64,000 bases of DNA from Arcobacteraceae bacterium (GCA_963662945.1 OY759974.1:896001-960000), one strand, 5' to 3'; positions 34,205 to 56,200 are shown, numbered from the stretch's first letter. Translations and numbers: made by a program. Notes: generated by a model not told the origin, from the sequence alone.

Positions 34205-34384
34205 TTAATTCCTTTAATCATTTTGATATTATATTAAAAAAGTGATAATAAATTATAAAAGAAAAATATTAATATAATATGAATTAAAAAGAAATCGAAA
34301 AAGATTAACAAAAAAAGAAAATAAAAAAGCCAAAGGAGGCATAAAAGCTTCCAAAAAGAAGTAAAAAAAAGAGACACCTTAAAA

Positions 34385-34500
34385 GTTGGCAGCGACCTAC
34401 GTTTCCACCAGGGGACCCGGCAGTATTATCGGCGATGGAGAGCTTGACTACCAGGTTCGAAATGGGGCTGGGTATTTCCTCTCCTCTATAACCACCAACA
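34385..34500 (-). rRNA. rrf: 5S rRNA
   Basis: Conserved 5S sequence (CCATTTCGAAC, CGCCGATAATACTG, GGAAACGTAGGTCGCTGCCA) on the minus strand; ends approximate. Confidence 0.95.
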
Positions 34501-34626
34501 TTTAAAATGTCTCATTTAAAAGTTGTGTATAAAGTAATACAGTTAAAGTCTTTGTTCTAAAGTAAAAATACATTCTAAATATATCTTATTACATTTAATA
34601 AGATAGTAAACTAAAGATAATCTTAT

Positions 34627-37508
<2,882 letters not shown>

Positions 37509-37756
37509 GATAAATTAAAGAAGAATTTGTATTATTGCTAATACAGTTCTTTTTTGCTTTGTTATGATTATTCTTTAGCTACTATCTTATTAAATGTAAC
37601 TTCAATAAAATAATATTTAAAATTGTATTTTTATTTTCTTTAGAAAAATAAAGACTTTAACAGTATGTTTTTAAATAACTCTTTGATCTCTTTTGAAATC
37701 AAATATTAATTCTACAATTAGAACTAATATTTAACTTCTTCTGTATCTCTTTCCTA

Positions 37757-37832
37757 TGGTGGAGAATAGCGGGATCGAACCGCTGACCTCCTACGTGCAA
37801 GGCAGGCGCTCTCCCAGCTGAGCTAATTCCCC
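37757..37832 (-). tRNA. tRNA-Ala(TGC)
   Basis: GGGGAATTAGCTCAG...TTGCAC...CCA in the 16S-23S spacer. Confidence 0.97.
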
Positions 37833-37833
37833 A

Positions 37834-37910
37834 TGGTGGGCCTAACAGGACTTGAACCTGTGACCTCACGATTATCAGTCGAGCGCTCTAGCCAGCTGAG
37901 CTATAGGCCC
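37834..37910 (-). tRNA. tRNA-Ile(GAT)
   Basis: GGGCCTATAGCTCAG...CTGATAA...CCA in the 16S-23S spacer. Confidence 0.97.
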
Positions 37911-38158
37911 ATGAATACTTAGTTAATAATGATCTCTCATTATTGACTAGGATGTTTTAACATCTTTGTTAATAAATAATGTTCTGTTCTTTTAAGATTA
38001 TTCATATAATCTTTATAAACTAGATAGCAAGATGTCTTTATGAGATTAAAGAACTTTCGTCTCGATGTTGTACTATTTTTTACATCAATTTGTTATATCT
38101 TATTATATAACTTTTTATTCATTGAACTCAACTAAACGAATAGTTAAGTTATATCTTT

Positions 38159-39676
<1,518 letters not shown>

Positions 39677-40031
39677 AAATAAGCATTTCTACTTATTGGT
39701 TTGTTTAATCTTGACTTTTAAGTTTTTACCTAAAAATCACTGAATCTATTTAAAGATTCAATTATATTTATTTGTTTTTAGTTTTAAAACTAAAACTCAT
39801 AAAGTTTATAGACGAAGTTTATCAAATATAAATTACTCTATATTTAATTCTTCTTGTATCTAGTTTATAAAGATTACTTCTCAGTAATTTAAATAAACTT
39901 GATTTTATTTATTAACATTATTTTTTTTAAAGAACTTTTCCTAATTAATTTTTCTCTCTTCTTGAAGTTATTGAATCTAAACAACCCGTTTATACTCTCT
40001 TCTTAAAGTGTCTTACTTTAATTGGACGCGA

Positions 40032-40060
40032 ATTATAATAAAATTTTTTGGCTTTGTCAA
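40032..40060 (-). promoter_or_regulatory. rRNA operon sigma70 promoter
   Basis: Minus strand TTGACA-N17-TATAAT followed by GC-containing TCGCGTCC; a similar TATAATTTCGTCC precedes the tRNA cluster at about 5232-5244. Confidence 0.85.
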
Positions 40061-40131: not shown

Positions 40132-40611
40132 CTATAAATCATAATTATCTATATATAATAATATATAAATTCTCTCTCTTTCATCAATATATTTCTTTGT
40201 TTGAACTAATTGTAAATATTCATATATTTTTTCTTGTGATAAATCAGATTGATCTAATTTTTTTTGTAACTCTTTTCTTGCTCTACTTCTTGCTAAATTT
40301 TCTTGGTAGTTTTTACCTTTAAAATGTGTATTAGCTTTTCCCACACCATAATATTGGTAATCAGCACTGTAACCTTTAATCCATAATGGAATAATATTAG
40401 TTGGTTCTTCTTGATCTATATTAGCTTTTAAAAGTCTTTTTATTTTAATATCTGCCAGTGATTCAAATACACCGTGAGGATATTGTTTTTTATATAACTT
40501 CAATAATTCAACATCACCACTATCTTTTACTTCATCCCAAAATAATAACTCTGCTTTATCTGCAAAAAGCATTGTAATTAATATTGTTAAAATAAATATT
40601 GTTTTTTTCAT
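40132..40611 (-). CDS. Secreted hypothetical protein with a possible LPP20-like C-terminal half
   Basis: Signal peptide; PLWIKG...YYGVGKA...ARSRARKEL; overlaps the mutS2 stop. Confidence 0.6.
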   Translation of the reverse strand: MKKTIFILTILITMLFADKAELLFWDEVKDSGDVELLKLYKKQYPHGVFESLADIKIKRLLKANIDQEEPTNIIPLWIKGYSADYQYYGVGKANTHFKGKNYQENLARSRARKELQKKLDQSDLSQEKIYEYLQLVQTKKYIDERERIYILLYIDNYDL

Positions 40612-42812
40612 AGTTTTATAACCTTTGCTCCATACCCACCCTCTTTTGCTGTTGCATCATTATAACTTTTTATACTTGGATGAGTATCTAAAAATTGTTT
40701 CACCGCATAAGCAAGTTTTCCTGTTCCTATTCCATGATATACTAAAACCTCATCAAATCCAGCAATTAAACTATCAGAAAGAAATTTATCTAAATTTTCA
40801 ATAGCTTCTTCTGCTCTTTGCCCATGTAAATCTAACTTCACATGTCCTGTTTGAGGCTTTTGGATATCTATTTTAACATTTTTAGGTTTTACTCTTGGTA
40901 TATTACCACTTCTTTTTAAACTTGATAAAGGAAGTTGTAATTTCATACCATCATTGGTCTCAACCATTGCTTTTTTCCCTTTGATTGATATAATGACACC
41001 TTTTGTATTATTATATTTTACAGTATCTCCAACTTTTAAATCTAATGGTTCTTCTACTTTTTCAACTTTAATTTGCTGTTTTTTTGTATGAACTTTATTT
41101 AAAATTCGATGTTGCTCTTTTGAATCATTTAATTTAACAGCTTTTTTTACTTCTTCAATGGCTTCTTTATATTCTTGTTCTAACTTATTTTTCTTTGCTA
41201 AAACTTCTTTATCTAAATTCTCTTTTTGTTCTTTTAAATTTTGCTCTAGTCTATTATTCTTTTCAATTTTTTCATCAAGTTGTTGTATCTTTTGTTTATA
41301 TTCTCTTTCAAGATCACTACTTCTTTGTATTAAATCATTTAATTTATCTTTATCTTCACCATAAACTTCTTTTGCTTTTTTTACAACACCTACAGGAATA
41401 TTATATCTTTGAGCAGTTTCAAAAGCATAACTTCTCCCGATTGTTCCTTGTAAAAACTCATAAGTTGGTTTTCTATTTTCTTCATCATAAAGTGCAGCTA
41501 TCAAATCTACTTCAGGATTTGAAGCTAATAAAGATGCTAATCTTTTATGATGTGTTGTCACAATGATTTTTATATTTTTACTTATAAGTTCTTCAATGAT
41601 AACTTTAAATAAACTCGCTGCTTCATCACTATCTGTTCCTAACTCAATTTCATCAACACCAACTATTGCATTTTGTTTTGTAAAAAGTTTACTAAACTCA
41701 ACCATACGACCAGCAAATGTTGAAATATCATTTTTCACATTTTGTGGATCATCCAAAATTGCATTGATATCTTTATAACTACCAACAACACTTGATTTAT
41801 CACAACTATATGGAATAAGATATTTTGACATATAAACAGCACTTAAAATTGATTTTAGAAGCATCGTTTTTCCACCAGCATTTACACCAGTAATCATAAT
41901 AACATTTTTCGTGAAATCTACAGTCACACTTTTTGCATGTTCTAACGCAGGATGTTTGAAATTAACTAGTTTTTGTATTTTATTAGCTTTATTTGATGGT
42001 AATATAAAATTAAGATTTTTATGTTTTGCAAAATGTATTCTTGCCTGATAATGGTCATATCTATCAAACTCTTTATTGATAAATCTTAAAAACATAAGAT
42101 GTTTTGATAATAAAAAACTAAATTCTTGAGTGATTTTATAAAGAATTTCATCCTTGAGATTAATCAAATCAGATTGTTTTTGTTTTAATTCACTCACACT
42201 ATGTGGCAATACATAAAAAAATCCACTTTGACTTCTATCTAATACTTTACATTGTAATACATGATTAAATCCAGCTCGTACCATCAAAGTTTGTTCCCCA
42301 TGAACTAAGTGTACTTGATGATCAACTAAATATGGTTGTAAATTTTTACTATTTATTACCCCATAAAGTTTTTGCTTAATAGCATCTCTATTTGTATATA
42401 AACTTTGATTTACCCTATCTAAATCTTCATCAAATCCGGATAACAGTTCACCCTTATCATCAAATGCATAAATAATTTTATCTAATTCATTAGGAATAAT
42501 AATTTTTTCAATCCACGATTCTAATTTTCCACTAAAAGTGAATTTCTTAAGATATGAAAAAAAAGTAATAATTTTTACAAATTCATATATCTCATAGATT
42601 TTTATATTACCTTGCTTTTGCAAATAATTTAATGCACTATCCAAATTATCTATTTTTTGTGGAGTTTTTAACTCAAAATTTTCTAATTCACTTAAAATTG
42701 TATGATGAAGGTTTATATCACCTTCTAAAATAACGCTTTTTTCTCTACAAAACAAAGACTGTAGATTTTCTATATGATTTACTATATCAAGTTTTTTTAC
42801 TAAATTTTCCAA
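40608..42812 (-). CDS. mutS2: Endonuclease MutS2
   Basis: ITGVNAGGKT, ISTFAGRM, DEIELGTD, TTHH; C-terminal Smr domain LDLHG...YHGIGTG. Confidence 0.96.
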   Translation of the reverse strand: MENLVKKLDIVNHIENLQSLFCREKSVILEGDINLHHTILSELENFELKTPQKIDNLDSALNYLQKQGNIKIYEIYEFVKIITFFSYLKKFTFSGKLESWIEKIIIPNELDKIIYAFDDKGELLSGFDEDLDRVNQSLYTNRDAIKQKLYGVINSKNLQPYLVDHQVHLVHGEQTLMVRAGFNHVLQCKVLDRSQSGFFYVLPHSVSELKQKQSDLINLKDEILYKITQEFSFLLSKHLMFLRFINKEFDRYDHYQARIHFAKHKNLNFILPSNKANKIQKLVNFKHPALEHAKSVTVDFTKNVIMITGVNAGGKTMLLKSILSAVYMSKYLIPYSCDKSSVVGSYKDINAILDDPQNVKNDISTFAGRMVEFSKLFTKQNAIVGVDEIELGTDSDEAASLFKVIIEELISKNIKIIVTTHHKRLASLLASNPEVDLIAALYDEENRKPTYEFLQGTIGRSYAFETAQRYNIPVGVVKKAKEVYGEDKDKLNDLIQRSSDLEREYKQKIQQLDEKIEKNNRLEQNLKEQKENLDKEVLAKKNKLEQEYKEAIEEVKKAVKLNDSKEQHRILNKVHTKKQQIKVEKVEEPLDLKVGDTVKYNNTKGVIISIKGKKAMVETNDGMKLQLPLSSLKRSGNIPRVKPKNVKIDIQKPQTGHVKLDLHGQRAEEAIENLDKFLSDSLIAGFDEVLVYHGIGTGKLAYAVKQFLDTHPSIKSYNDATAKEGGYGAKVIKL

Positions 42813-43824
42813 TGTTCAACTTCGGCTTTATAATTTTTTTCTCTGGTATTTGTTTTTGTTTTGAATTTCTAAGTTCTGTATCTAGATTAATCTCTTCTCC
42901 AAATACTTCTCTTTCTTTAAATTCTTCAACTAAAGATTCCAACAATTTTATACTAAATTCTGGTATATAATTATTTATTTTATAACTTTCTTCACTTATT
43001 GTTAGAATCTTAACATCTTTATTGCTATCAATATCATTTTGATAAACATATCCATAACTTTTTCTGATTTTTAACAACTCTTCTTTTATCGCTGGATGTA
43101 AATAATATAGTTTTGACATATTCGTTTCTATTCTATAGTTACTATTGTCAAAATCTATTAACTCCCATTTTAGATTAAGTATCTTTTTTTTCTTTTTACC
43201 ATGTATTAAAAAAAGAAAAAATGATATTACAAGCGGTTTGTTATGAAATAAAATATTAACAACATCATATATTTCTGTTATTTTTTCTTGTATCAATTTA
43301 ACATATTGTTTTTCTTGTGCATATTTGAAATTAAGTTTTTTACAAGGACTCAATAGAATTAAATTTTTTTGTACTGCATAATCAAAAACGCGTATTATAA
43401 AATCAGAGGTTATTTTATAAACACTCAATTTAAAATGATTTTGTTGTTTACTGAAAATATGTTTAATATCTTCTTCTGTAATAACTTCAATAGGAATCAT
43501 ACCTAAATAATTTTTAATATATTTTTCATAATATCTTTTTTCTATAAAATCAGCAACATCATGAAACTCAACATATTTACTAATAAAATCATCAAATGTT
43601 AATTGTTCTTTTTGTATTAATTGTTTATTCTTGTTTTTTTCTTTTTGTAATGTAGCTTTTGCTACTGATATTTTCATGTCAGAAGTCCACTTTTTTTGTG
43701 AAAAATCTAATGTACCTTCTATATACTCATCTAAATCTTTAAACTTATAATAAAAGAGGGAAGTGTTTTCATCACACCACAACTCTTCAGTTAATTGCTT
43801 AGTAAAATATGATTTATTATCCAT
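42787..43824 (-). CDS. Tyrosine-recombinase (phage integrase-like) homolog lacking recognisable catalytic residues
   Basis: Core-binding-like YEKYIKNYLG...ITEEDI...VFDYAVQKNLILLSPC; box I-like FLFLIHGKKKKKILNLKWELIDF; no HxxR or catalytic Tyr box. Confidence 0.65.
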   Translation of the reverse strand: MDNKSYFTKQLTEELWCDENTSLFYYKFKDLDEYIEGTLDFSQKKWTSDMKISVAKATLQKEKNKNKQLIQKEQLTFDDFISKYVEFHDVADFIEKRYYEKYIKNYLGMIPIEVITEEDIKHIFSKQQNHFKLSVYKITSDFIIRVFDYAVQKNLILLSPCKKLNFKYAQEKQYVKLIQEKITEIYDVVNILFHNKPLVISFFLFLIHGKKKKKILNLKWELIDFDNSNYRIETNMSKLYYLHPAIKEELLKIRKSYGYVYQNDIDSNKDVKILTISEESYKINNYIPEFSIKLLESLVEEFKEREVFGEEINLDTELRNSKQKQIPEKKIIKPKLNIGKFSKKT

Positions 43825-43834
43825 TTTTATTTAA

Positions 43835-44440
43835 TTAATCTTTATTCTTATTAATAAAAATTGCTAAAGAAACTCTATCTTTCACTTTTAATTTTGTAAA
43901 TATATTACCAATATGTTTTTTTACAGTTACCAACTGTATATCTAATTGCTTAGATATCTCTTTATTCGAATCTCCCTTAGCAACCAACTGAGCAACTTCT
44001 AATTCTTTTGATGAAAGCACTGATAATTTCTTTTTATCTATTTGTTTTTCCGTATCAACAGTTATATTTTTTATTATATAATTCATCAATTCTGGATAAA
44101 GCCAAACATTTCCTTCTTGGACAGTTTTTAAAACTTCTTTTACAATAATCTTACTTGTTTTTTTACCAATATAACTCTTGCATCCTTTTTTGATCATCAA
44201 AGTACCATGAGCTAATCTTGGTACTTCTACTAAAGCTATAATATTTAATAATTTGGATACATTATCAATGTAAAAAAGTGTTTGTTCAACTGTTTTAAAA
44301 TTATCTAGGTCTAGAACTAAAATATCATTAGTTTGAAAATTCTTCTCGTCTAGATAAAAATCTTCTTCAACCACTCTTGCTTCAAACTCATTTGTCCAAT
44401 AATTTTTGATGATTTCTTGTTGTGAATAAATATAAATCAT
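43835..44440 (-). CDS. NarL/LuxR-family regulator with an atypical receiver domain
   Basis: C-terminal HTH LSSKELEVAQLVAKGDSNKEISKQLDIQLVTVKKHIGNIFTKL. Confidence 0.9.
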   Translation of the reverse strand: MIYIYSQQEIIKNYWTNEFEARVVEEDFYLDEKNFQTNDILVLDLDNFKTVEQTLFYIDNVSKLLNIIALVEVPRLAHGTLMIKKGCKSYIGKKTSKIIVKEVLKTVQEGNVWLYPELMNYIIKNITVDTEKQIDKKKLSVLSSKELEVAQLVAKGDSNKEISKQLDIQLVTVKKHIGNIFTKLKVKDRVSLAIFINKNKD

Positions 44441-44441
44441 T

Positions 44442-46259
44442 TTATTCCTTCTGTGTTGTTTTTAGTATTGGTTTCAGTAAAAATGACATGATACTTTTCT
44501 TACCAACTAAAACATCTGCATTTACCATCATACCAACTTTTATCTTATACTTTTCATTATCTAAAAGATAATTCTTTTTTGTTTTTACATAAATCATATA
44601 AAAACTATCCCCTGTATCTTCATCCACAATAGTATCTGGACTTATATTAGTTATTTTTCCTTCTAAATCTCCATAAATAGAATAATCAAATGCAGTTACT
44701 TTTAATTTTACTGTTTGACCTACATGTAATTTAGCTATCTCTTCAGGTTTAATTTTCACTTCTGCTACCATCTCATAATTGTCTGGTACAATTGTTATGA
44801 TATCAGCTGATGGTTCAATAGAACTTCCTACTGTATGCACAAAAATTTCTTTTACAACTCCATCTACTGGCGAACGAATTACCGTTCTTGCTATAATATC
44901 TTCTAGATTTTTTTTAGTTTCTTCTAGTCTTAATAATTCTGCAATCGTTTCATTTAATTGTAATGCTGATTTATTTTTAAATGTTAATTTTGTTTCCTCA
45001 ATACCATTTTTTATCTCTTGAATTTGAGCATCACTTTGTTTTATAACTTCTTGTGCACTTCTTAATGCTCCTCTTGAATCATTAAGCTCTCTTTCTAATT
45101 GATTTAATTCATATTTTGTAAATATTTTTTTTGCTTCTAATGCTTTTTTTGCTTTAAATTCTTCTTCGAGAGTAATTAAATTTTCTTTTAATACATCGTA
45201 CTTATTTTGTGCATCTACTAAAACACTCTCTTGATATTTTAGTTGTTCTAATTGTTTAGATATATTTTGTTGTAATTCTTGTTGATTTGATAAAAAATAA
45301 TGTTTTTCATTTTCAATCATACTATTATCACATTCACCATTACAAACTATTTTTTGCATAGGAAGATCGTCTATCTCTGCCATCAATCTAGATCTTTTAA
45401 CTTTCAATTCCATTATTCTAATATGATTTTCTTCTAGCTTACTTTTATAAGATATGGGACTCAATTTTACTAATATTTGTCCTTTTTTAATGCTATCACC
45501 TTCTTTTACGTAAATATGCGAGACCACTCCCCCTTCGAGATTTTTAAGTTTTTGTACTTTTGAAGTTGGAATAAATTGACCTTGTCCCCGCGCAATTTCA
45601 TCTATATCAAAACTCACTGCATATATTAAAAATAAGAAGATAAAACCTACAACAATTTTTACCACTAAACTTACTTTATTTGAGACTGTATCCAATACAG
45701 CGGCGCTAGTACTGGATACAAAACTTAGTGTAGAATCATGATACTTTTCTTGTGACATCATTTTGACTTGTAATTTATGGAGTAATCTTTGACAGGATAT
45801 ATCATGAATGACAAAAATAAATCCACTTAATTCATTATCTATGAATAGTGGATTTATAATAGTTTTAGTAAAAATCTCTTTATTATCTACTGTCGTTAAA
45901 ACAAGTTCCGTACCCCAAGATTCTTGGTCATGGTTTTTTACATATTCGCAACCATTATAAAATTTTTCTGCATACTCTGGTGAAACTATAAAAGTAAAAC
46001 TTTTATTTGTAAAAGTTGCATTATTATAGCCAAAAAGATCACTAAAAGCTTTGCTTACAGACTTGACTGACAAATTTTTATCTACTGTACATGAAATCAT
46101 ATTTTCATCAGCAATAGTATTGAAGTCATTCATTTGCCGTAAAGTATCTTCATCTATCAAACTAGCTAACTTACTATGACTCTCTTTAGCTGCTAATTCT
46201 TTTTCAAGTTTTTCAATCTTTAAATTAAGATTTTCTACTATTATCTCTTGACTATTCAT
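44442..46259 (-). CDS. HlyD-family T1SS periplasmic adaptor with an N-terminal PAS domain
   Basis: C-part: IDEIARGQG, NLEGGVV, IRSPVDGVV, AFDYSIYG, KVGM; N-part: VDKNL..KSVSKAFSDLFGY...GFIFVIHDIS. Confidence 0.9.
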   Translation of the reverse strand: MNSQEIIVENLNLKIEKLEKELAAKESHSKLASLIDEDTLRQMNDFNTIADENMISCTVDKNLSVKSVSKAFSDLFGYNNATFTNKSFTFIVSPEYAEKFYNGCEYVKNHDQESWGTELVLTTVDNKEIFTKTIINPLFIDNELSGFIFVIHDISCQRLLHKLQVKMMSQEKYHDSTLSFVSSTSAAVLDTVSNKVSLVVKIVVGFIFLFLIYAVSFDIDEIARGQGQFIPTSKVQKLKNLEGGVVSHIYVKEGDSIKKGQILVKLSPISYKSKLEENHIRIMELKVKRSRLMAEIDDLPMQKIVCNGECDNSMIENEKHYFLSNQQELQQNISKQLEQLKYQESVLVDAQNKYDVLKENLITLEEEFKAKKALEAKKIFTKYELNQLERELNDSRGALRSAQEVIKQSDAQIQEIKNGIEETKLTFKNKSALQLNETIAELLRLEETKKNLEDIIARTVIRSPVDGVVKEIFVHTVGSSIEPSADIITIVPDNYEMVAEVKIKPEEIAKLHVGQTVKLKVTAFDYSIYGDLEGKITNISPDTIVDEDTGDSFYMIYVKTKKNYLLDNEKYKIKVGMMVNADVLVGKKSIMSFLLKPILKTTQKE

Positions 46260-48428
46260 CTAGTTACCACCACTTAACTTACTTAATATTTCCTCTTTTG
46301 GTCCATCCATTATAATTTTACCACTGTCCATCACAATTATTCTATCCACTAATGCTAAATTTGATGGTGTATGTGTTATTAGTATAAGTGTTTTTTCTTT
46401 TAAAAACTCTTTTAAATTTTTTAAGACTTTATTTGTAGTTCCACTATCAAAAGATTTAGTAGGTTCATCAAGAATAAATAATGCACTATCATCTATAACT
46501 GTTCTTGCTAATGAAATAGCTTGTGCTTGACCACCAGATAAATTTTCACCTTTTTCAACAATTGGAAGTTCAAAACCTTTAGGATGTTTATTAATAAACT
46601 CTGTTGCACAACTAATTGTTGCAGCTTTAAGTAAATCATCATCACTTGCTTTATGATTTTTTATCATTATGTTACTTCTAGCAGTTCCTGCAAATAATAC
46701 TATCTCTTGTGCCATATAAGAGATATTTGACCGTATCTCTACAGGGTCAATTTGTTGTACATCAATACCATCAATTAAAACAGAACCCTCATCATGATAA
46801 TAAAATCCTAGTAGAAGTTTTTGAATAGTACTTTTTCCACTTCCTACTTTTCCTAAGATAGCAACTTTTTCCCCCTCTTCAATCTTAAAATTAATATTAA
46901 TTAATTGCTTTGTTTCAGTTCCAGGATATGAAAAACTTACATTTTTGAATTCTATATTTCCTTTAAAAGCAGGTCGTCGAACAAATTGTTTATCACTAGG
47001 ATGTTCTGATTCTAAATTCATAACATTTTCGATAGATTGATATGCAGATACAATATGTTGGTAATATGCAATCATACCAGCTACTTGCCCCATAGGTCCC
47101 AATGCCCGGCCAGCCATAATAACTGTTGCGATTAATGCCCCTGTTGTAAGAGTTTGTGCATCAACCATATAAGCACCAAAAATAATAATAAGCACTGTAT
47201 TTAACTGTGTAACAAAAGAAGATACTGTCCCAATAGCAGCTGAAAGTGTTTTTGTTTTAATCCCTTTATCTGCTATTTCCCCTGTTGCTTCTTCCCATTT
47301 ATATTGAGATAAACTTAAAGCATTTAAACTCTTAATAGTTTCAAGATTTGAAATAGATTCTATAAGAACGCCATTTTTTAAACTACTTGCACCTGCAGTT
47401 TCTTTTACACTTTGCAACATTTTATCTTTGATACTATAAGTATAAACTAAAATTATCAGCATAGAAACAACTGTAACCCACACTAAATGCCCTGCTACAA
47501 AATAAATTGTAAATAAAAAGATAAAAACAAATGGTAAATCAATAACAATAGCAATAGTACTTGAAGCCATAAAACTTCGTATAGATTCAAACTCTTTTAG
47601 TACATTTGCAAAAGACCCAATAGGTTTTGGTATTACAGATATTTTTAAATCCATTACTTTTTCAAAAATAATAGAGGACATAATAATATCTGCTTTTTTT
47701 CCAGCAACTTCCAGTAAATACGTACGGGTAAAACGTAAACCTAAATCTATCATATATACAACAACCACCCCTAAAGCAAAAACCCAAAGTGTATCAAAAG
47801 CTGAAGTTGGGATAACCCTATCATAAACATTCATAGTAAAAATTGGTGTTGCTATCATAAAAAGATTTATCACTAATGATGCTAACAAAACATCTTTGTA
47901 AATATATTTTACTGTTTGTATAGTATCCCAAAACCAATGTTTATGTTTATTGTCTATAAGTTTAAAATCATCTGATTCAAAACGAAACTCTCTTTTTAAA
48001 AAGAAAGCTAAACCAAAATATTCTTCTTTTAAATCTTCCGTAGAAACTTTATTAACCACTTCTCCAATCTCTGGAAGAATGACATTAGCATATTCTCTTG
48101 TTTCATCAAAAGACTCTAAAATACAAGCATTTACTTCATTTGGATTATCTGTTTTTAAAAGAATAATACAAGGCAAAACCAATTTACTGATTTCATCTAA
48201 AGAAATTTTTGAGATACTTGTTTTAAATCCTGCTTTGTGTGCAGCTCTACTAAACAATCCTCTTGAAGCATTAGCTTTTACAGAAAAAAGTTTTGGAGAT
48301 GATTCACCTTCTGCAATTGGTAATCCTTCACTTAATACTTCAGCACTATATGGTTTTCCATGTAATTTAGAAAATAAAACTAATGAATCTAAAACTGAAC
48401 TTTCTATATGTTTTCTAAAGTTTGCCAC
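46260..48428 (-). CDS. Type I secretion ABC permease/ATPase (LapB/LssB-like) with a C39-like N-domain
   Basis: PIFTMNVYDRVIP, Walker A GKVGSGKST, LSGGQ, LDEPT. Confidence 0.95.
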   Translation of the reverse strand: MANFRKHIESSVLDSLVLFSKLHGKPYSAEVLSEGLPIAEGESSPKLFSVKANASRGLFSRAAHKAGFKTSISKISLDEISKLVLPCIILLKTDNPNEVNACILESFDETREYANVILPEIGEVVNKVSTEDLKEEYFGLAFFLKREFRFESDDFKLIDNKHKHWFWDTIQTVKYIYKDVLLASLVINLFMIATPIFTMNVYDRVIPTSAFDTLWVFALGVVVVYMIDLGLRFTRTYLLEVAGKKADIIMSSIIFEKVMDLKISVIPKPIGSFANVLKEFESIRSFMASSTIAIVIDLPFVFIFLFTIYFVAGHLVWVTVVSMLIILVYTYSIKDKMLQSVKETAGASSLKNGVLIESISNLETIKSLNALSLSQYKWEEATGEIADKGIKTKTLSAAIGTVSSFVTQLNTVLIIIFGAYMVDAQTLTTGALIATVIMAGRALGPMGQVAGMIAYYQHIVSAYQSIENVMNLESEHPSDKQFVRRPAFKGNIEFKNVSFSYPGTETKQLININFKIEEGEKVAILGKVGSGKSTIQKLLLGFYYHDEGSVLIDGIDVQQIDPVEIRSNISYMAQEIVLFAGTARSNIMIKNHKASDDDLLKAATISCATEFINKHPKGFELPIVEKGENLSGGQAQAISLARTVIDDSALFILDEPTKSFDSGTTNKVLKNLKEFLKEKTLILITHTPSNLALVDRIIVMDSGKIIMDGPKEEILSKLSGGN

Positions 48429-48439
48429 ATTCTTTCCTT

Positions 48440-50362
48440 TTAAATTTCACCTAGCATATATTCTTTTATCAAACCAAGGTTTTTTAATATTTCATATTTT
48501 GAAAGAATAAAATCATATTTCGTTTCTATATAACTTCTTTTTGCCTCATATACACTATCTGTTACATCCAAAAGATCATTAGCATCAATTTTCGCAAACT
48601 TATAATCGTAATTTGCAGCGACATATTCTTCTTCTCTTTTTTTAACCATATCGCCTGTAAAGTTTTGTTTCGAATCTAACATATAATATTTATTGTAAGA
48701 CAAATCTAATGTATACCTTGCATCTCTAATGACTTCGTCTTTTTTAGCTATTTTTTGTTTATATTCATAAAATTTTTTTGCATAATCTGCTTCATCTGCT
48801 CCACCAGCATAAAGATTTATTGATGCTTCTACAGACAGAGATGACTCTTTTGTTGTTGTATCATATGTATTTAAAGTATATTTTTCATCTAAAACACTAC
48901 TTTTCCCTACAAGATTAATAGATGGAAGAAAAGATACATTTGCTTTTTCTAACTTTTGTTTATACAACAAAACATTATTATTTGCTTCTTTAATTGCTGG
49001 TGCATATTTTTCAATATCTTCTAATGCTAAAACAACATTTCCAAAATATTTACTTGTTGGATTTTCCATTTTAAATAATTTCATCTCATTATCATCAAAA
49101 TCTAAATATTTTTGCATTTTTGATATAGAATCATTATATCTTTTTGTATCTTCTTCAAAATTCATAAATCTACTAATAGATCTTGCTTCCACTTTTCTAA
49201 AATCTCTTAATGCAGTTATACCATTTTGAAATCTAATTTTCTCTTTTTCAACCCAGTCCATATAATGAGTATAATTTTCTCTTGATAATTTGTAAATATC
49301 TTTTATTTTTTGAATTGTTATATATGCCTCAACTAAAGAATAAATTAAATCATCTTCAATTTGCTCTTTAGAATACTCTGTTGATTTATAATTTGCTTGT
49401 GTTATTTCTAATTGATTTTTATCTTTAAATCCATTAAAAAGATTATACCTCACTGTAATATCTCTTGAACCATCACTATCTTTTACAGCCGCTGTTTCAT
49501 CATCATAACTTGTATAGTTTTTATAACTATAATTAACATCAATAGTTGGTTTAAAAGCTGCTTTTGCTGTATTAATATCTTCATTTGTAGCTTTTAAGAG
49601 TTCTATTTGCTCTTGAAGTGTAGGATTTTCATTAAGAAGTCTCTGTACATATTGAGAAATAGTTTTGATATTTTGTTCTGGAATATCAGTATTGTGTTCT
49701 AATGTTTCCTCTATATTTTCAATTTTTACTGGTTCTATTTGTTCAGGTTCTTCTATTTTTGTTTCTTCTTTAACTATTTTTTCTTCTTTTGGTAACTCTA
49801 CATTTTCATTTAAAATAACAATAAATTCTATTCTTCTAGATTTATATACATCTTCCTCACCATTTTCTTGATAAATGAGCTTTGATGATGAGTTTCCAAT
49901 AGTAATAAATTTCTCATTGATAAAATCTTTATTATCTTCTACAGTGTTATCATTAAGCCTCTTTATAAAATTTAAAACACCATCCGCTCTTTCCTGAGAT
50001 AAAATTAAATTTCTTTGATATTTTTCCTCTTTTGTTTTTCCTTTATTATTTTCAGAAGATGTATATCCATTGATCTCTACTTTTTTAATATATTTTTCAT
50101 AAGGCTTTAATATTTCAATATATCTTGGGAAAAAATCTTTTAATATTAATTCAAAAGATTGTGAAATAGTTGCACTTCCTTTCATATAAAGCATATTAAT
50201 ATTCTCAAATCTTAATCTCAAATTTTCTTTATTAAATTGAACTTCCCATACTCCAAAATCCCTTTTAAATTCTTGGTTTATAGTTTGATAAATTTCATCT
50301 TTAACTGTATCAGCTAAAAGATTAACCGTAATACAAAAAATAAAAATAAAATTTTTAATCAT
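48440..50362 (-). CDS. TolC-family outer-membrane protein with an N-terminal OmpA/MotB-like domain
   Basis: N-part: INGYTSS, NLILSQERA, SRRIEF; C-part: AKAAFKPTID, YNLFNGF, FLPSINL, NLYAGG. Confidence 0.88.
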   Translation of the reverse strand: MIKNFIFIFCITVNLLADTVKDEIYQTINQEFKRDFGVWEVQFNKENLRLRFENINMLYMKGSATISQSFELILKDFFPRYIEILKPYEKYIKKVEINGYTSSENNKGKTKEEKYQRNLILSQERADGVLNFIKRLNDNTVEDNKDFINEKFITIGNSSSKLIYQENGEEDVYKSRRIEFIVILNENVELPKEEKIVKEETKIEEPEQIEPVKIENIEETLEHNTDIPEQNIKTISQYVQRLLNENPTLQEQIELLKATNEDINTAKAAFKPTIDVNYSYKNYTSYDDETAAVKDSDGSRDITVRYNLFNGFKDKNQLEITQANYKSTEYSKEQIEDDLIYSLVEAYITIQKIKDIYKLSRENYTHYMDWVEKEKIRFQNGITALRDFRKVEARSISRFMNFEEDTKRYNDSISKMQKYLDFDDNEMKLFKMENPTSKYFGNVVLALEDIEKYAPAIKEANNNVLLYKQKLEKANVSFLPSINLVGKSSVLDEKYTLNTYDTTTKESSLSVEASINLYAGGADEADYAKKFYEYKQKIAKKDEVIRDARYTLDLSYNKYYMLDSKQNFTGDMVKKREEEYVAANYDYKFAKIDANDLLDVTDSVYEAKRSYIETKYDFILSKYEILKNLGLIKEYMLGEI

Positions 50363-53113
50363 CTACATACCTTTTATTAACAAATACATATTTAATTTAT
50401 TATTATCTAAAGAGATACCTAAATCAAACACTTTATATGATTCAGTCTTTGCAAGAGTTTCAACGATTTCGTCTTTATTCACTTGAAGAGTAATTTTTTT
50501 ATTTGTATTTTTTGATACTATATCCCCTAATGATAATAAAATTTGCTTTGAAATATCATGTAAACCATTATCAATCGTTTCTACAATATCTCCATCTGTA
50601 TCATCAATCATAATATTAAATATTTTAGACAAAGTTTTTGCTGGAATAAAAAACTTCCAATCAACATTTTTGCTACCATTTGCCACTAAACTATTAGTAA
50701 ATAATACCCCATTCATATTTTTAATATTCTGATGATAAATTTGTTCTATCTGAATCTTCTCCAACGTCGTTTCTAAGATATTATTTAATGTTGTTAATAA
50801 AGAATCTTGTATTAAAGTATATGGGTCTAATTTCGCTTTTTCTGCTTTTGAAGTTACTTTTTTTTGAATTTTAATAGGAGTTGCAATCACGTTATTAATA
50901 GTTTTGGCTTCAGATTGAACTAACTCCTTTTTTTCTTCCCCAATCTCTGTTTTTTTTATATCTTCCACAACTTCTTCATCTTTTAACTGTTCGACATCTA
51001 CTGTTTTACCAAAATATTCATAAGGAACAATCTCCTTATTTTCAACAATCATATTTACAAAAGGAATCAAGTCTTTATCTAGTCTTGTATATATTTCAAT
51101 TATATCTTGAGCAAATATTATACTTATTTTAAAGACATTCTCAAGTTTAGACAGATCTCTTTTTGTTATCTCTTTTATCTCTGATTGTGTGTATTTTCCA
51201 TTTTGTAAATCATGGAATTTTTTTTGATTTATTATATTACACATATTTATAGACAAGGTATAAATAAATTCTTTTGCTGTATCTACTACATCTTTATTCA
51301 TCTCATCTACTAACTCAAACTTATTATCACTTATTAAATTTAAGATTTTATATGAAGATATACAAGAGATATAAAAATTCCATTTTGATTCTATATCTTT
51401 AAATTTTAATAGACCATCAACTTCAACCATTTTTTCTCTTGGAATTGAATTTGAATCAATAGCTTCGATATTAATATTTACTAGTTTTTCTGAACTTAAT
51501 TCTTCAATTGTATGTTTGATACCTTCAACAATTTCATAAGAAATATCCGTATTCTTTTTTTCTTCTTCTAATTCTAGTTTTTCATTTATTCGAATATCTT
51601 TTAATAATTCAGCTGTTTCTTTTGATGATTTATAATTCACCAAATCTTGTGTCATATCCACTAAAGCAACTATTATAATTCTCTCTGTAACATGCTTTGA
51701 ATAATCCATTTCATTAAACTTCACTATAAAATGGTGTGGATCGCCGTTTATAGACATAACTACTTTATAAAGTTTTCTTGGATTTTGCAATAAATAGTCA
51801 ATCCAAAATTCTCCATCAATATATTGATCCCATATATAATTTGGTGCTTCATACTTTTCAAAAAGTTCACAAACACATTTATGCTTCTTTTTAAAACCAT
51901 CAAAAGTTCCAAATCTATTGAAAAATCCCATAAATCTATTATTTGCCTTTGTTATTTCTTTTCCATTATGCATAAACATTAGATTTGGTTGCATATTAAA
52001 TAAATTATCTAATTTTTTATCATTAAAATCAAGCTGATCTGTTTTTTCTTTTAAATCTTCATTGATAATTACTAATTCTTCATTTTCTAATTTTAAATCT
52101 TTAAAAACATTTGCCATATATAAATATTTTATGAAAAAGAATATAAGAAATATTGAAATTATAGTCACAATAATATGTGCTTTTTGCATAAAATTCAAAT
52201 CTTGATAATCTATTTCATCAAGTGTTCTAAATATTATTGCTTTTGCTATTATGCTATTATCGAGATTTTTAATATTATATTTAGATATAAGATGATCGCT
52301 TTTCTCATGGACAATATAATTGTTATTATCATCATCACAAAACTCATTTGCATCATTTTGTTTTATCACCCTTAAAAGATAATCATCTGCATTGGAATTT
52401 ACTACATAACAATCATTTATAAAGTTTTTAGAATAAGAAAGTTCTTGTTGTATTATATGAGAATCTCTTTTATTTAATAAAATTACTATTTTATACCCTC
52501 GTTGTGAAAAAATATCAGCTAATGCATCAAAATGTACATTAACTCCAAAATATCCTAAAAAAATATTGTTTTCATCAAAAATTGGTATTTTGTTTGTAAA
52601 TGTTACACCATATTTACTGGTTTGTATTGTAGTATATACTCTTGGATATTTTATTAGATGTTCCATTTGAGGATCATCTTTCACTAAATCATCACCTTTT
52701 AAATTTGTCCAACTCCTTTTAAAACTTTTACCATTAGCATCAATAACTTCTGCTTGAATATCAACATACTCTTTTTTAGTTCTCATCTCTTCAAGTAGTT
52801 TATCCATATCAAGTAAATCTGGATTATTTTGTTTCAATGATTTTTTAATCATAACATTTTTAGACAACGATGATGAAACAAGTAAAGATGTATTAAGCTT
52901 TTCATTAAGCATGACATCAAATTTCTCTAATATATCTTGATCAACTTTTTTATATATTTTATTTTTATATTCTTGTGTTTTTAAAAAATATATATCTTTA
53001 GAAATAAAACCAATAATTAGAATCAAAAATAAAAAAAGCGAAGTATAGATTGTTTTTGTACTAACAACATGATTATTAAGAATTTGTTTCTTGAGTTTTT
53101 TTAGTTTTTTCAT
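50363..53113 (-). CDS. Membrane sensor-like protein: TM, Cache-like, TM, PAS-like, then two CheC/FliY-like domains; no kinase or cyclase output
   Basis: Two hydrophobic segments, SFKRSW..LKGDDL Cache-like region, LFNMQPNL...ANNRFMGFF PAS-like region, duplicated C-terminal domain. Confidence 0.7.
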   Translation of the reverse strand: MKKLKKLKKQILNNHVVSTKTIYTSLFLFLILIIGFISKDIYFLKTQEYKNKIYKKVDQDILEKFDVMLNEKLNTSLLVSSSLSKNVMIKKSLKQNNPDLLDMDKLLEEMRTKKEYVDIQAEVIDANGKSFKRSWTNLKGDDLVKDDPQMEHLIKYPRVYTTIQTSKYGVTFTNKIPIFDENNIFLGYFGVNVHFDALADIFSQRGYKIVILLNKRDSHIIQQELSYSKNFINDCYVVNSNADDYLLRVIKQNDANEFCDDDNNNYIVHEKSDHLISKYNIKNLDNSIIAKAIIFRTLDEIDYQDLNFMQKAHIIVTIISIFLIFFFIKYLYMANVFKDLKLENEELVIINEDLKEKTDQLDFNDKKLDNLFNMQPNLMFMHNGKEITKANNRFMGFFNRFGTFDGFKKKHKCVCELFEKYEAPNYIWDQYIDGEFWIDYLLQNPRKLYKVVMSINGDPHHFIVKFNEMDYSKHVTERIIIVALVDMTQDLVNYKSSKETAELLKDIRINEKLELEEEKKNTDISYEIVEGIKHTIEELSSEKLVNINIEAIDSNSIPREKMVEVDGLLKFKDIESKWNFYISCISSYKILNLISDNKFELVDEMNKDVVDTAKEFIYTLSINMCNIINQKKFHDLQNGKYTQSEIKEITKRDLSKLENVFKISIIFAQDIIEIYTRLDKDLIPFVNMIVENKEIVPYEYFGKTVDVEQLKDEEVVEDIKKTEIGEEKKELVQSEAKTINNVIATPIKIQKKVTSKAEKAKLDPYTLIQDSLLTTLNNILETTLEKIQIEQIYHQNIKNMNGVLFTNSLVANGSKNVDWKFFIPAKTLSKIFNIMIDDTDGDIVETIDNGLHDISKQILLSLGDIVSKNTNKKITLQVNKDEIVETLAKTESYKVFDLGISLDNNKLNMYLLIKGM

Positions 53114-53244
53114 TGCAGATATTCCATATTATAATGCGTTTGCAAGATTATACTAAAGTATACCTTAAATAAAATTTTTGATTATATTTATTATTACTTA
53201 TAATGTACTAAAAGATAGAGAAAATCTCTATCTTAATTAAATTA

Positions 53245-56200
53245 TTATGATTGGTCTACTTGAACATTTGAATCAATCATAATCTGAATTGTTTGCAATT
53301 CATCTCCAGATCCTGCAGTAGATGTAAATGTATTAAATTCATTTCCATTTTCATCAATTGTTGTTTCCCCTGGTGTCCATATATCACTATCTAATGATAC
53401 TCTATCATCTGCATCACCTAGTATAGTAAGAGTATTATTATCTCCTGTCATATTAAGTACATCTTGAGCATCTAAATTTGATATTTCATGTGAACCTTCT
53501 GTCATATCTATAGAATTTATATGTGCTAATTCACTATCAACATCAATATTATTAAAATCTATATCAATATCATCCATATCAAATGTAAAGTCACCATCAT
53601 CAGATATATCTCCCATAGCATCTAAAGAGTTATCTTCATTTGTAACAACTGTACTTGTATCTCCACCATTAATTTCTGTTGAAGTTACACTTGCTGTAAT
53701 GCCACTTATAGAATCATCATCTAATTCAGATGGTGCTGATAAAGTTACTGTTGCATCACCATTTTCATTTGGTGTGATTGTATATGTTCCATCTAAGTTT
53801 GCACTGATTTCATTTCCATTAGCATCTGTTAATGTTGCACCATCTGGTATATTATTCAATGTAATATCACTTAACGTTTCACTTCCATCTGTGTCAGTTA
53901 ATCCTGCATTTAAGTCTATATCATAAGAATATACTGTTTCTGTATTATCTGGAATAGAAGAATCCGTACCCAAAGATACAATACCATCACGAAATTGAAT
54001 ATTTTCTACATTTTGTGTTGTAACTTCATAATGATCTAGATCCCATTCTCCCCATGCATTATAACCAACTTGTTGGATAGTATGAGTACCATCACCATTA
54101 TCTATAATATTAAATCTTACACTACCATTATCTCGAGGTGCGTCAATCACTAAAGTATCTGTTCCTGATCCACCATCAATATTATGTCCTGTTCCAAAAT
54201 TATTCCACAATGATACAGGAGCTTCTATGGTATCATTACCAGCACCTGCATTTATCTCTTTATTATCACCCATTCCTACATTAATAATATCTGATGCTTC
54301 TGTACCATTAATAGTTTCATTATTTGTCCAATAATTATTTGCACTATTAATTACATTTCCATCAATAGGAATTACCTCTGCAGAGACTGCTATAACTTCA
54401 AAACTATCAGACCAACTATTACCTGAAATTTTTATTGAACTAAATTCCTCTTCAGAAGTTATTGTTTGCACTTGATTTCCATTATTTACATCTATCACTA
54501 TAGTATCTACAATATTTCCATTTTCATCTAGTAATTCAACTTTTGCATCATCTTGTCCCATATTATTTCTAAATGTTACATCAACACTATGAGTATTTCC
54601 ACCTAAGTTATACTCTGCTGTATCCCAACCACCATTTACATAATCTGTTGTTGTGTCTGTAAATGTTACTGTTTGTTCTGGATTAACTTCAGTTACAACT
54701 GCATCACCTATTTCCATATCTAAAGTTGGAGCTGATGCTTCATGATCTACTCCTGTTACATTTACAGTTATATCAGCTGTATCTGTATCAACTCCATCAC
54801 TTACTGTATAAGTAAATGTTACATCTGTATTTTCACCTTGATCTAATGTTGCAAAATATTGGCTTGGTGTGAATTCAACTTCACCATTAGGTGTTACTAT
54901 TGCTGTACCTAATTCATTTCCATCAGTATCTGTTATAGTTGCAACTTGTCCATTTGTTACATCTTGTCCATCAATAGCTACAATTGAAAGTTCATCACCA
55001 TCTGAATCTGTATCATTATTTGTTGCATCTACGATTACACTACTATCTTCATCTGTAGTAGCTATATCATCTGATGCTTCTGGGGCATCATTTGGAATAT
55101 AAGCAATGTCTGTATCTATTACTGTATTTGTATCACCTGTACTTAATTCTGTACCCGTTGCCACTATACTTAATTCAAACTCTCCAATACCAGCTGGAAC
55201 TGTTATTGTTAAACTATCTTCTATAGATGTTGCACCTTCTGGTACTGATATAGTCCAAGTTCCATCACCATTATTGATACCTTCACTTAAGGTCGCACCT
55301 TCTGGCACGCCTGTTATAACCACACTTAAACTTTCACTTCCATCTGTATCACTAAGTGCTGCACTAATATCTACTGGATATACATAACCATTAACTACAT
55401 CCTCTGTAGTCATCATAGGTTCTACCACAATTTCTTGTGAAACCATTGGTACTCCACCCTCTATTTCAGAAGCATCTACTTGTTGTGCTGGTGCATCTAC
55501 AAGTACACTTTCGGTGTAAGTCTCTGTAGTAGTTTCCTCTTTTACCCAACCTGATTGTCCCTCATAAGTCACTTCTATATCTTTTACATTTACAATCTCA
55601 TCTGAAGCAGTTGAAGCAACCATAAAATCTAATTGTGCTTGACCATTATCATCTAAATACACCTGATACTCATAAGTATATGTTTCTGATTGATCCCAAC
55701 CTAAATAACTTACATCATCTGACTCATAGGTATTAGCGTTTGAATTACTTGAATAATAATTTACATCCAGCTCTTTTCCATTTGCACTAACACTAAAATA
55801 GTCATTTGTACTTGTAGTGTTATTATCCCAACTACCTTTTACTTCCATTTCAACAGTAATTGTCACAAGTCTATTAGCTAAATCTGGCCCAAAATCAAAT
55901 ACTTGACTTGATTCATGATCTTCTGGATTAAATCCATCAACTTTACTATTTCCAACATTTCCAATATTTGTTATATCAGCACTTTGTGTTATTGTTTGAT
56001 GTTCTGTTTCACTCCAAGAGATTCCAGCAGCTTCCATCGCATCATAATCAGGTACTAATCCTCCAGCTTCAACAGTAACTGTTTCTGGTAATCCTCTTCC
56101 TTGAATAGATTCTACTTCTATATCTGAACCATTTGCAGTCAATCTAACTGCACTAAACTCTTCACCAAAACCATATCCTCTTTCATCATTACCTGTAGGA

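Follow-up and report, generated by a model that had tools for sequence, protein, structure and literature searches.

Downstream of a giant-adhesin gene in an Arcobacteraceae bacterium lies a cassette of five genes that probably constitutes an Arcobacteraceae-type variant of the type I secretion system (T1SS) for giant adhesins, one in which sensing modules stand in for the regulators LapD and LapG. The cassette is part of a stretch of 64,000 nucleotides (nt), hereafter the window (GCA_963662945.1 OY759974.1:896001-960000), which corresponds to C1:896001-960000 of the genome that we call G000, a single contig of 2.50 Mb. Numbered g1 to g5 in coding order, the genes encode a membrane sensor, a TolC-type outer-membrane duct, an ATP-binding cassette (ABC) exporter, an HlyD-type adaptor bearing a PAS domain, and a LuxR-type regulator; three further genes, g6 to g8, follow on the same strand. 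Comparison of gene neighbourhoods shows that g1-g5 are co-inherited as a conserved unit.

This comparison covered 150 other genomes of the same family, and proteins matching residues 1-195 of g4 at E<=1e-30 were counted as close PAS-HlyD homologues. Such an N-terminus is present in 17 genomes: 12 of the 21 from the same genus, two from the genus labelled g8 and three from the genus labelled g14 (genus labels, not gene numbers). In 16 of the 17, a g1 homologue, or a kinase homologue in its place, shares contig and strand with PAS-HlyD at a distance of 4-6 kb; in the remaining genome (G086) the g1 homologue and PAS-HlyD are on different short contigs. For the 15 loci that were fetched, the order sensor, TolC-type, ABC, PAS-HlyD, LuxR holds in every case for the genes that fit the contig. 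Contig ends cut two of these loci: G086 starts inside the TolC gene, so that g1 is missing, and the LuxR gene of G107 is on a second contig. The C-terminus of an adhesin is encoded directly upstream of the cassette in G143, G146, G107, G068 and G014, and the C-terminal 300 amino acids (aa) of the window adhesin are 47-56% identical to the open reading frames (ORFs) directly upstream of g1 in G143, G146 and G107. In the closest relatives, G128, G131 and G140, the block from g1 to LuxR is intact though the adhesin orthologue (60-62% identical across its last 299 aa) lies at a distance of 160-200 kb. Tight gene spacing alone is ordinary in operons; because the g1-g5 block recurs in relatives, the grouping is more than chance.

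The adaptor g4 carries a PAS domain on its cytoplasmic arm, which bears out the proposal of an earlier, sequence-only reading of this stretch that a sensor domain is wired into the secretion apparatus. Residues 58-155 match PAS_9 (36.4 bits, cut-off 27) and residues 196-604 match the T1SS adaptor family TIGR01843 HlyD (330.9 bits, cut-off 208.65). Hydropathy places ~190 residues in the cytoplasm, followed by one transmembrane segment (TM) and the periplasmic adaptor. Across 27 aligned sequences, L63, S69, K99, G103-C104-E105-Y106 and W115-G116 of the cytoplasmic part are invariant, and the juxtamembrane stretch is conserved too. Within a sample of the phylum, PAS-HlyD proteins occur in 3 of 15 Arcobacteraceae-family genomes and in none of 285 genomes from 13 other families. 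An exhaustive HMMER search with g4 residues 1-260 against 1.84 billion cluster representatives returned 33 matches at E<=1e-10, with an alignment across both the PAS and the HlyD part in only about seven proteins that are not fragments. We scanned 15 of the 150 listed matches, picked for a PAS-to-HlyD span or a long N-terminus. Eight have a PAS domain ahead of HlyD, among them one GAF-PAS-HlyD protein (P0118, 789 aa) and one with an unrelated PAS_4 (P0203, 555 aa); the other seven have N-terminal extensions that match no family, and the longest of these proteins has 1,372 aa. The neighbouring exporter g3 is assigned to TIGR03375 LssB (836.5 bits, cut-off 693.1) and is 81-89% identical across the same-genus cassettes.

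These features bear on a rival explanation, which we consider unlikely though worth weighing: the extra domains would be structural decoration on a constitutive adhesin T1SS of the usual kind, regulated at transcription alone, with the PAS domain of g4 as a ligand-free oligomerisation module or scaffold and with g1 sensing a periplasmic cue and acting through some partner on the LuxR regulator. PAS domains are indeed often dimerisation modules. However, the Cys, Glu, Tyr and Trp of the g4 PAS are invariant among the 27 sequences at 59-82% overall identity, which is beyond the needs of a bare scaffold, and sensor-type modules (PAS, GAF-PAS, PAS_4) recur on HlyD N-termini.

The sensor g1 combines the input half of a two-component sensor with a different output half. 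Hydropathy indicates a TM, a periplasmic domain of ~260 aa, a second TM and ~580 cytoplasmic residues. In g1 itself the match to dCache_3 is below cut-off (Pfam/NCBIfam); of five orthologues scanned, P0002 and P0010 exceed the cut-off, as does each of the four paralogues. When modelled from a 37-row alignment, residues 335-505 form a PAS domain with a long N-terminal and a C-terminal helix (AF2 pLDDT 85.5). This model has 30 Foldseek matches at E<=1e-3; the listed ones among them are PAS or LOV domains, or sensors with such a domain, including LOV-HK, FixL, WalK and NifL. The two-component-type input is therefore present, as a periplasmic dCache domain, TM, and a cytoplasmic PAS domain with signalling helices. 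Among 33 orthologues the PAS module is the best conserved part of g1, with H382, H411, C413, H460 and H461 invariant, and C413 and H461 are still invariant once the kinase homologues are added. The CheC-like half described below is the least conserved.

Residues 491-916 of g1, folded with a 23-row alignment, form two domains (AF2 pLDDT >90 each) joined by a disordered linker. All 38 Foldseek matches of this model at E<=1e-3 are CheC, CheX, FliY or the FliM middle domain. When residues 516-687 and 761-916 were aligned separately with VIA-align, Z scores were 9.6-13.9 with rmsd values of 3.3-4.9 over 135-172 residues; the next unrelated fold reached Z 4.8. Identity to the structural matches is 3-13%, and the two domains share a weak sequence likeness with each other (E=0.002). 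The call of g1 as Cache-PAS-(CheC-like)x2, made from sequence alone, was thus right, both CheC-like folds being recovered by structure prediction. A search of the ESM Atlas with residues 505-916 gave a best score of 0.80, below the meaningful level.

No match to HisKA or HATPase_c was found in g1 or in the five orthologues scanned, even at E<=1. The N-terminal half of g1 has four paralogues in G000, three of them dCache_3-HisKA-HATPase_c kinases and one a dCache_3-PAS-HD-GYP protein. In G068 and G014, which belong to another genus, the gene in the g1 position encodes HATPase_c, and in G014 also HisKA. By homology and position, these comparisons show that g1 is the descendant of a sensor histidine kinase.

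The CheC-like folds raise the question of whether g1 is a chemotaxis-type phosphatase of phosphorylated CheY (CheY-P) that merely adjoins the T1SS, an explanation we find hardly credible. Two CheC/CheX/FliY folds are present, and one homologue of g1 is labelled 'CheC' in a JGI record. The active-site motif of CheC and CheX is (D/S)xxxExxN, and no [DS]xxxExxN occurs anywhere in g1, whose sole ExxN sits in the inter-domain linker. Furthermore, the best VIA matches are as often the FliM middle domain, which is not an enzyme, and g1 homologues hold their place beside the T1SS in 16 of 17 genomes, including those in which the C-terminal domains are lacking or have the form of a kinase.

The regulator g5 has a GerE domain (65.5 bits, Pfam) and no Pfam match to Response_reg. 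In NCBIfam it gives partial, sub-cut-off alignments to NarL, NarP, FimZ and CsgD, with 45.9 bits against a cut-off of 250 for the CsgD equivalog. The acidic pair after beta-1 is absent from all 16 g5-type sequences compared, including the one from locus C (another T1SS locus of G000, described below) and those adjacent to kinases, and the Asp position is variable. All 16 share the motif W[LVI]YP[EQK][LF] ahead of the helix-turn-helix (HTH), which in g5 reads WLYPELM. The cyclic di-GMP (c-di-GMP) motif of VpsT is W[FLM][TS]R; since g5 has W[LVI]YP instead, c-di-GMP binding cannot be claimed. These features best fit a description of g5 as a regulator in the style of CsgD and VpsT, with a putative pseudo-receiver.

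Several of these observations could be accommodated by the constitutive T1SS with transcriptional output introduced above. The ancestor of g1 was a kinase beside a LuxR-type regulator; folds of the CheC family bind receivers (CheX-CheY, 3hzh), and g5 has a receiver-like domain; and a LuxR gene also follows HlyD in locus C, whose HlyD is plain. Against this stands the missing acidic pocket in 16 of 16 g5-type receivers, even beside a true kinase, which makes a classical phosphorelay to g5 unlikely.

The duct g2 is fused to a domain of the OmpA family. Pfam assigns OmpA (28.9 bits, cut-off 27.2) and two repeats of OEP (123 bits, cut-off 22), and the hydropathy profile runs from a signal-like N-terminus through the OmpA-like domain and an E/P/K-rich linker to TolC. 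The motif of OmpA-like peptidoglycan-binding domains is N-x2-L-S-x2-R-A. The corresponding segment of g2 is NLILSQERA; eight of 11 fused TolCs have the exact motif and 10 of 11 the Arg, and the domain is a predicted peptidoglycan-binding domain. OmpA and TolC form a single ORF of 571-630 aa in all 10 cassettes of the same genus or the genus labelled g8 that have the complete gene. A profile of the OmpA-like domain built from the 11 fused TolCs recovers the Ank-OmpA protein of locus B, a third T1SS locus of G000, at E=2.5e-49 and the OmpA protein of locus C at 2.1e-6. Because the profile matches these separate accessory proteins, g2 is a duct fused to an accessory OmpA-like protein, and profile homology shows its OmpA-like domain to be homologous to the free-standing T1SS accessory OmpA. 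Each of the three LssB loci of G000 has an OmpA-family component. Four PAS-HlyD loci from other genera instead have a TolC (602-762 aa) with a SPOR domain, another predicted peptidoglycan-binding module, at its C-terminus, and they contain no separate OmpA gene. A large protein collection includes 18 clusters of OmpA-TolC fusions (609-731 aa), of which the named ones are from Campylobacterota; the JGI pipeline calls some of these clusters 'TolC/OmpA-like'. We also considered a Zorya identity for g2 and rejected it, as the ZorB2 match (119.9 bits, cut-off 400) comes solely from the MotB/OmpA-like domain that both proteins have.

The sequence-only reading had set g2 against the plain TolC of known loci. 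The fusion is real, but an OmpA-like accessory was already known: SO4321, an OmpA-like protein of the Shewanella bpf locus, is required for biofilm formation, and its role is stated as unknown (PMC4523816). Since an accessory of this type already occurs in such loci, g2 represents the fusion of a known partner rather than a new one. SiiA of the SPI-4 T1SS likewise has a peptidoglycan-binding MotB-like domain (bioRxiv 10.1101/641415).

The window adhesin differs from substrates under Lap control. Its N-terminal region matches Ig_like_ice (101 bits) and Ca_tandemer (73 bits) in NCBIfam. The first 400 aa contain no match to retention_LapA (NF033682) or Pfam LapA and no di-alanine site of the form [TAP]AA[GV], the cleavage-site pattern of LapG. 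The N-terminus is acidic and N/Q-rich, and its first ~40 residues (MA..E.LGQ...REDE.SK.GG...SLEDF; C1:965400-965531) are conserved in the G128 orthologue and unlike known retention modules; over 408 columns the two N-termini are 40% identical. As judged from these searches, the analysis shows a window adhesin that lacks LapA-type retention and cleavage features. In G131, the adhesin orthologue (L050, G131:C2:1435000-1436190) meets the contig end in near-perfect 98-aa tandem repeats, so that its N-terminus is unassembled.

LapG and LapD are absent from the window and from the 14 kb upstream of the adhesin. A family search of the window thereby confirmed what had been read from the sequence, and upstream of the adhesin, where a LapD/LapG pair would have told against the earlier proposal, only mog and other housekeeping genes were found. 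The window adhesin has no Lap features; elsewhere, ~680 kb away, the genome does encode a canonical LapG and LapD with an adhesin and a T1SS of their own. In the whole genome, the two genes were found together only at C1:1.628-1.631 Mb. LapG has 215 aa (Peptidase_C93, 56.6 bits), and LapD has 732 aa with LapD_MoxY_N, GGDEF and EAL domains. They are part of locus B (1.62-1.646 Mb; C1:1616001-1645962), which also encodes a 4,567-aa adhesin, a histidine kinase, a response regulator, a plain TolC (530 aa), an ABC transporter, a plain HlyD (462 aa) and the Ank-OmpA protein. The adhesin of locus B, which served as a positive control, matches Pfam LapA and carries TAAG at residue 153. By its gene content, locus B is a complete canonical Lap-type locus. 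It further contains a WG-repeat protein, and its two-component genes number three.

Locus C (1.72 Mb; C1:1714001-1734000) is the remaining one of the three loci with LssB-type ABC genes above cut-off in this genome. It encodes TolC, a separate OmpA, an ABC transporter, a plain HlyD and LuxR; its substrate is a 1,897-aa cadherin-like protein with a weak retention_LapA match, followed by a receiver-HD-GYP protein. On the other side of locus C are an NMT1/SBP_bac_3-PAS histidine kinase and a response regulator.

Could the distant LapG and LapD control the window adhesin in trans, as in a normal Lap system with unlinked regulators? We judge this very improbable. Both proteins are encoded in the genome, and two more Peptidase_C93 matches exceed the Pfam cut-off, at C1:171853-172179 (+) and 2326895-2327113 (-), the second in a frame with an in-frame TAA. 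The G128 adhesin orthologue (L049) also bears a 'TAAA' at residue 152, a place at which the window adhesin lacks a di-alanine. On the other hand, a retention module and a cleavage site are both missing from the first 400 aa of the window adhesin, whereas the adhesin adjacent to LapG and LapD has a LapA domain and TAAG; the acidic N-terminal element is kept in G128 yet is unlike LapA; and LapG and LapD lie inside their own complete T1SS-adhesin locus.

The mechanism that we infer for a g1-g5 unit with its own sensing modules is as follows. The adjacent 5,428-aa Ig-like/Ca-tandemer adhesin would be the substrate of the apparatus. The predicted peptidoglycan-binding domain of g2 would anchor the duct in the cell wall and so let it bear the load of a megadalton adhesin held at the surface; lineages would differ in the tether, some using an OmpA protein encoded on its own, others OmpA fused to the N-terminus of the duct or SPOR fused to its C-terminus. 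In g4, the PAS domain of the cytoplasmic arm may make export conditional on a cytoplasmic cue, perhaps via the invariant Cys104. Such gating is suggested by the HlyBD system, in which the N-terminus of HlyD engages the substrate and triggers recruitment of the duct, TolC. A periplasmic input would be added by g1, which may signal through docking of its PAS and CheC-like domains to proteins rather than through phosphotransfer, and g5 would set transcription. Together, these parts would replace the LapD/LapG control that presumably serves another adhesin in G000. A prediction of the complex between g1 338-916 and g4 1-195 with alignments gave a score of 0.00 and a mark of 0.32, a result that speaks neither for nor against binding. 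A more specific version of this mechanism is possible but doubtful: the cassette would be a post-translational export checkpoint independent of c-di-GMP and of LapD/LapG, in which the PAS domain of g4, alone or with g1, would switch substrate engagement or duct recruitment in a T1SS anchored to peptidoglycan in response to a redox or ligand cue, and the TolC-OmpA and TolC-SPOR fusions would reveal that accessories such as SO4321 and SiiA tie the duct to the wall.

Several observations weigh against a sensor-controlled g1-g5 unit. The family survey yielded 15 further genomes with weaker PAS-HlyD matches (E 1e-17 to 1e-12, frames of 578-602 aa). In all six of these that were fetched, PAS-HlyD and LuxR are divergent from TolC-ABC and no g1 is adjacent; since such loci exist without it, g1 is not obligatory. 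The C-terminal half of g1 is itself variable, with two CheC-like domains in 4 genomes, one in ~4-6, none in ~5 and a kinase in 2. The two-domain variant (885-916 aa) occurs in G000, G131, G128 and G140, and a variant with the second CheC-like domain only (694-749 aa) in G143, G149, G114 and G107. G050 (708 aa) and a 696-aa frame in G109 resemble the one-domain variant in length. Proteins of ~500-530 aa or shorter, with no CheC-like domain, are found in G119, G146, G080 and the G096 and G089 frames, and G014 and G068 have true kinases of 621-734 aa. The absence of the CheC/CheX phosphatase motif means that no enzymatic output can be named for g1, and a sequence search of the PDB with the PAS modules of g1 and g4 gave no match at E<=1. 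For the duct, g2 scores 167 bits against TIGR01844, under the cut-off of 225.15, and the ~170-aa N-terminal TolC extensions of G068, G014 and G080 match no peptidoglycan-binding family by Pfam or the OmpA-like profile. Nor does this reading account for how an adhesin without a LapA-type plug would be held at the surface. Finally, signal scans gave chance-level counts of promoter-like sites (101 against 103.6 expected) and of terminator-like sites (2 against 2.0 expected, both on the plus strand).

The three genes beyond g5 are neighbours of a different kind. The sequence-only reading had described eight abutting or overlapping minus-strand genes as one candidate operon. An ORF scan of the window reproduced its coordinates and gaps, with eight ORFs at 40132-53113 separated from g1 to g8 by 0, 11, 0, 1 and 10 nt and then overlapping by 26 and 4 nt, and Pfam, NCBIfam, hydropathy and structure prediction bore out its domain calls for all genes. 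The neighbourhood survey that it had called for kept g1-g5 together in relatives and left out g6, mutS2 (g7) and g8, so that the eight-gene unit shrinks to five: only 5 of 12 cassettes have g6, whose product is catalytically dead by sequence, and mutS2 and g8 are neighbours limited to the genus.

The only family match of g6 is Phage_int_M at 22.6 bits, under the 27-bit cut-off, and over residues ~4-300 it is 28-32% identical to integrase-length frames. A family-wide search found g6 orthologues (42-51% identity) after LuxR in G149, G114, G086 and G107. Among the 12 cassettes with a readable junction, the seven that lack g6 have LuxR abutting mutS2. Tyrosine recombinases use a catalytic set of an Arg, a His-x-x-Arg box and a Tyr nucleophile. 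In an alignment of the g6 group with three integrase homologues of 322-377 aa, the first Arg position is K or R, the HxxR box is replaced (for example by KLLE or HMEY), and the GH...Y segment with the Tyr nucleophile is gone, a conserved basic tail, IKPKLNIGKF, having been gained. Judged by these residues, g6 stems from a recombinase but is catalytically dead, and it travels with the locus as an optional passenger. The product of g7 matches TIGR01069 MutS2 with 542.7 bits. That of g8 has an N-terminal hydrophobic, signal-like segment by hydropathy and no family match in Pfam or NCBIfam; its gene directly follows mutS2 in all nine same-genus loci that extend to it.

That all eight genes, with g6, mutS2 and g8 included, form one functional system is in our estimate extremely unlikely, despite their tight spacing and overlaps. 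Consistent with such a system, mutS2 and g8 follow LuxR or g6 in every same-genus locus that extends there (seven without g6, where LuxR, mutS2 and g8 abut, two with g6, and G000); the overlap of g6 with the mutS2 start is kept alike in G000, G149 and G114, the loci whose contig extends to mutS2; and the terminator scan found no minus-strand site inside the cluster. Yet neither mutS2 nor g8 accompanies the cassettes of other genera (G068, G014, G080) or the six divergent PAS-HlyD loci (L025-L030), g6 is missing from 7 of 12 cassettes and has lost its catalytic residues, and MutS2 is a housekeeping DNA endonuclease family.

Features of the locus are listed in the table. The start of g1 is 131 nt after the stop of the adhesin ORF, which ends at 53245 upstream of g1, and an rRNA operon adjoins g8 on the downstream side; the cluster is thus bounded on both sides. 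RNA folding of 53100-53260 gave z = -2.79, and this segment includes a hairpin that fails the T-run rule of the terminator scan. Together with the TATAAT-like boxes next to it, the hairpin may hint at a partial terminator and a separate promoter for a g1-g5 transcript. Just downstream of g8, at window positions 40032-40060 (-), is a perfect sigma-70 consensus (TTGACA, 17 nt, TATAAT; 12/12), which precedes a same-strand operon of 16S, tRNA, tRNA, 23S and 5S genes at 34384-39677 (-).

Table. Features of the adhesin secretion locus (window positions) and SPOR-bearing ducts of related loci (locus positions).
Feature	Position	Strand	Description
Adhesin	53245..63999	-	C-terminal 3,584 codons of 5,428-aa putative T1SS substrate; gene continues past window to G000:C1:965531
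Hairpin, 10 bp	53212..53234	-	11 nt past adhesin stop; TATAAT-like boxes next, before g1
g1, 916 aa	50363..53113	-	TM, dCache_3-like periplasmic domain, TM, coiled coil, PAS, CheC-like 1, disordered linker, CheC-like 2
g1 PAS (residues 335-505) and flanking helices	51599..52111	-	AF2, Foldseek
g1 residues 516-916, two CheC/CheX/FliM-middle-like domains (516-687, 761-916)	50366..51568	-	AF2, Foldseek, VIA
g2, 640 aa	48440..50362	-	Signal peptide, OmpA/MotB-like domain ~21-190, E/P/K-rich linker, TolC-type channel 234-640
g3, 722 aa	46260..48428	-	LssB-type T1SS ABC permease/ATPase
g4, 605 aa	44442..46259	-	Coiled coil and PAS 1-195 (window 45675-46259), TM ~197-220, HlyD-type periplasmic adaptor
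g5, 201 aa	43835..44440	-	CsgD/VpsT-like regulator: putative pseudo-receiver and GerE (LuxR) helix-turn-helix
g6, 345 aa	42787..43824	-	Tyrosine-recombinase derivative, catalytically dead by sequence, optional in locus
g7, 734 aa, MutS2 endonuclease	40608..42812	-	TIGR01069; housekeeping neighbour, outside system
g8, 159 aa, signal-like N-terminus	40132..40611	-	Overlaps mutS2 stop by 4 nt; outside system
SPOR-TolC genes	L026:10380-12668, L027:9859-11754, L028:7566-9374, L029:7734-9707		PAS-HlyD loci of other genera

Many bacteria use giant-adhesin T1SS to control their attachment in biofilms, and to our knowledge the sole well-understood control of these systems is LapD/LapG with c-di-GMP. 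The g1-g5 cassette would represent a second control design, with sensing modules in or beside the apparatus, and its presence in one genome with a canonical LapD/LapG locus provides a built-in internal comparison. The TolC-OmpA and TolC-SPOR fusions may act as a 'Rosetta stone', predicting that the OmpA-like accessories of Lap/Bpf systems act on the duct via peptidoglycan anchoring. The swap of a kinase core for CheC/FliM-like domains would be an unusual change of output in a two-component sensor. A literature search, which covered mainly listings and abstracts, with subscription journals and supplements outside its scope, returned no PAS-HlyD adaptor, TolC-OmpA or TolC-SPOR fusion, or Cache-CheC-like sensor.

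To place the individual parts, we compared them with characterized relatives. Both C-terminal domains of g1 have the fold common to the CheC/CheX/FliY phosphatases and the FliM middle domain (Z 9.6-13.9). They differ from these in lacking the phosphatase motif, in being tethered to a transmembrane dCache-PAS sensor and in their low identity. Like CsgD and VpsT, g5 combines a GerE HTH with a receiver-like half that lacks the acidic pocket, and it is encoded among biofilm-matrix functions; unlike them, it falls far under the CsgD cut-off and has W[LVI]YP in place of the W[FLM][TS]R motif. At the level of repeats, to which this comparison is confined, the window adhesin resembles the MpIBP RTX adhesins of Marinomonas primoryensis in its matches to Ig_like_ice and Ca_tandemer, whereas its N-terminal element differs. 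A paper on that adhesin (PMC5550230) contains no passage about OmpA or the layout of the operon.

Among whole systems, Salmonella SPI-4 (SiiABCDF-SiiE) is likewise a giant-adhesin T1SS with an accessory protein, SiiA, whose domain is MotB/OmpA-like and binds peptidoglycan. The N-terminal domain of g2 resembles MotB-like proteins, with partial matches to ZorB2 and MotB. In contrast to g2, SiiA is located in the inner membrane, pairs with the MotA-like SiiB and conducts protons; the g2 domain is behind a signal peptide on an outer-membrane duct, and the cassette contains no MotA/SiiB-like gene. The Desulfovibrio Dvh/Bfs system offers a Lap-like adhesin T1SS whose regulators have diverged from the gammaproteobacterial model. 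It differs from the cassette in retaining the LapG/LapD-like DvhG and DvhD, and the text consulted makes no mention of a PAS-HlyD or TolC fusion.

The Lap/Bpf systems (LapA-LapBCE-LapDG of P. fluorescens and BpfA-AggABC-SO4321-BpfGD of S. oneidensis) share with the locus studied here a giant repeat adhesin beside an ABC/HlyD/TolC trio. An OmpA-like component is also common to them, as SO4321 in Shewanella and as free-standing OmpA in loci B and C. Unlike these systems, the g1-g5 cassette has no LapG or LapD, and its adhesin has no retention module and no di-alanine site. Its OmpA-like domain is fused to TolC, its HlyD bears a cytoplasmic PAS domain, and it co-inherits a kinase-less dCache-PAS-CheC-like sensor and a CsgD-like regulator. 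The giant-adhesin T1SS is thus the known element of this locus, and the features of the variant are the PAS adaptor, the duct fused to OmpA or SPOR, and a Cache-PAS sensor in which CheC/FliM-like domains replace the kinase core.

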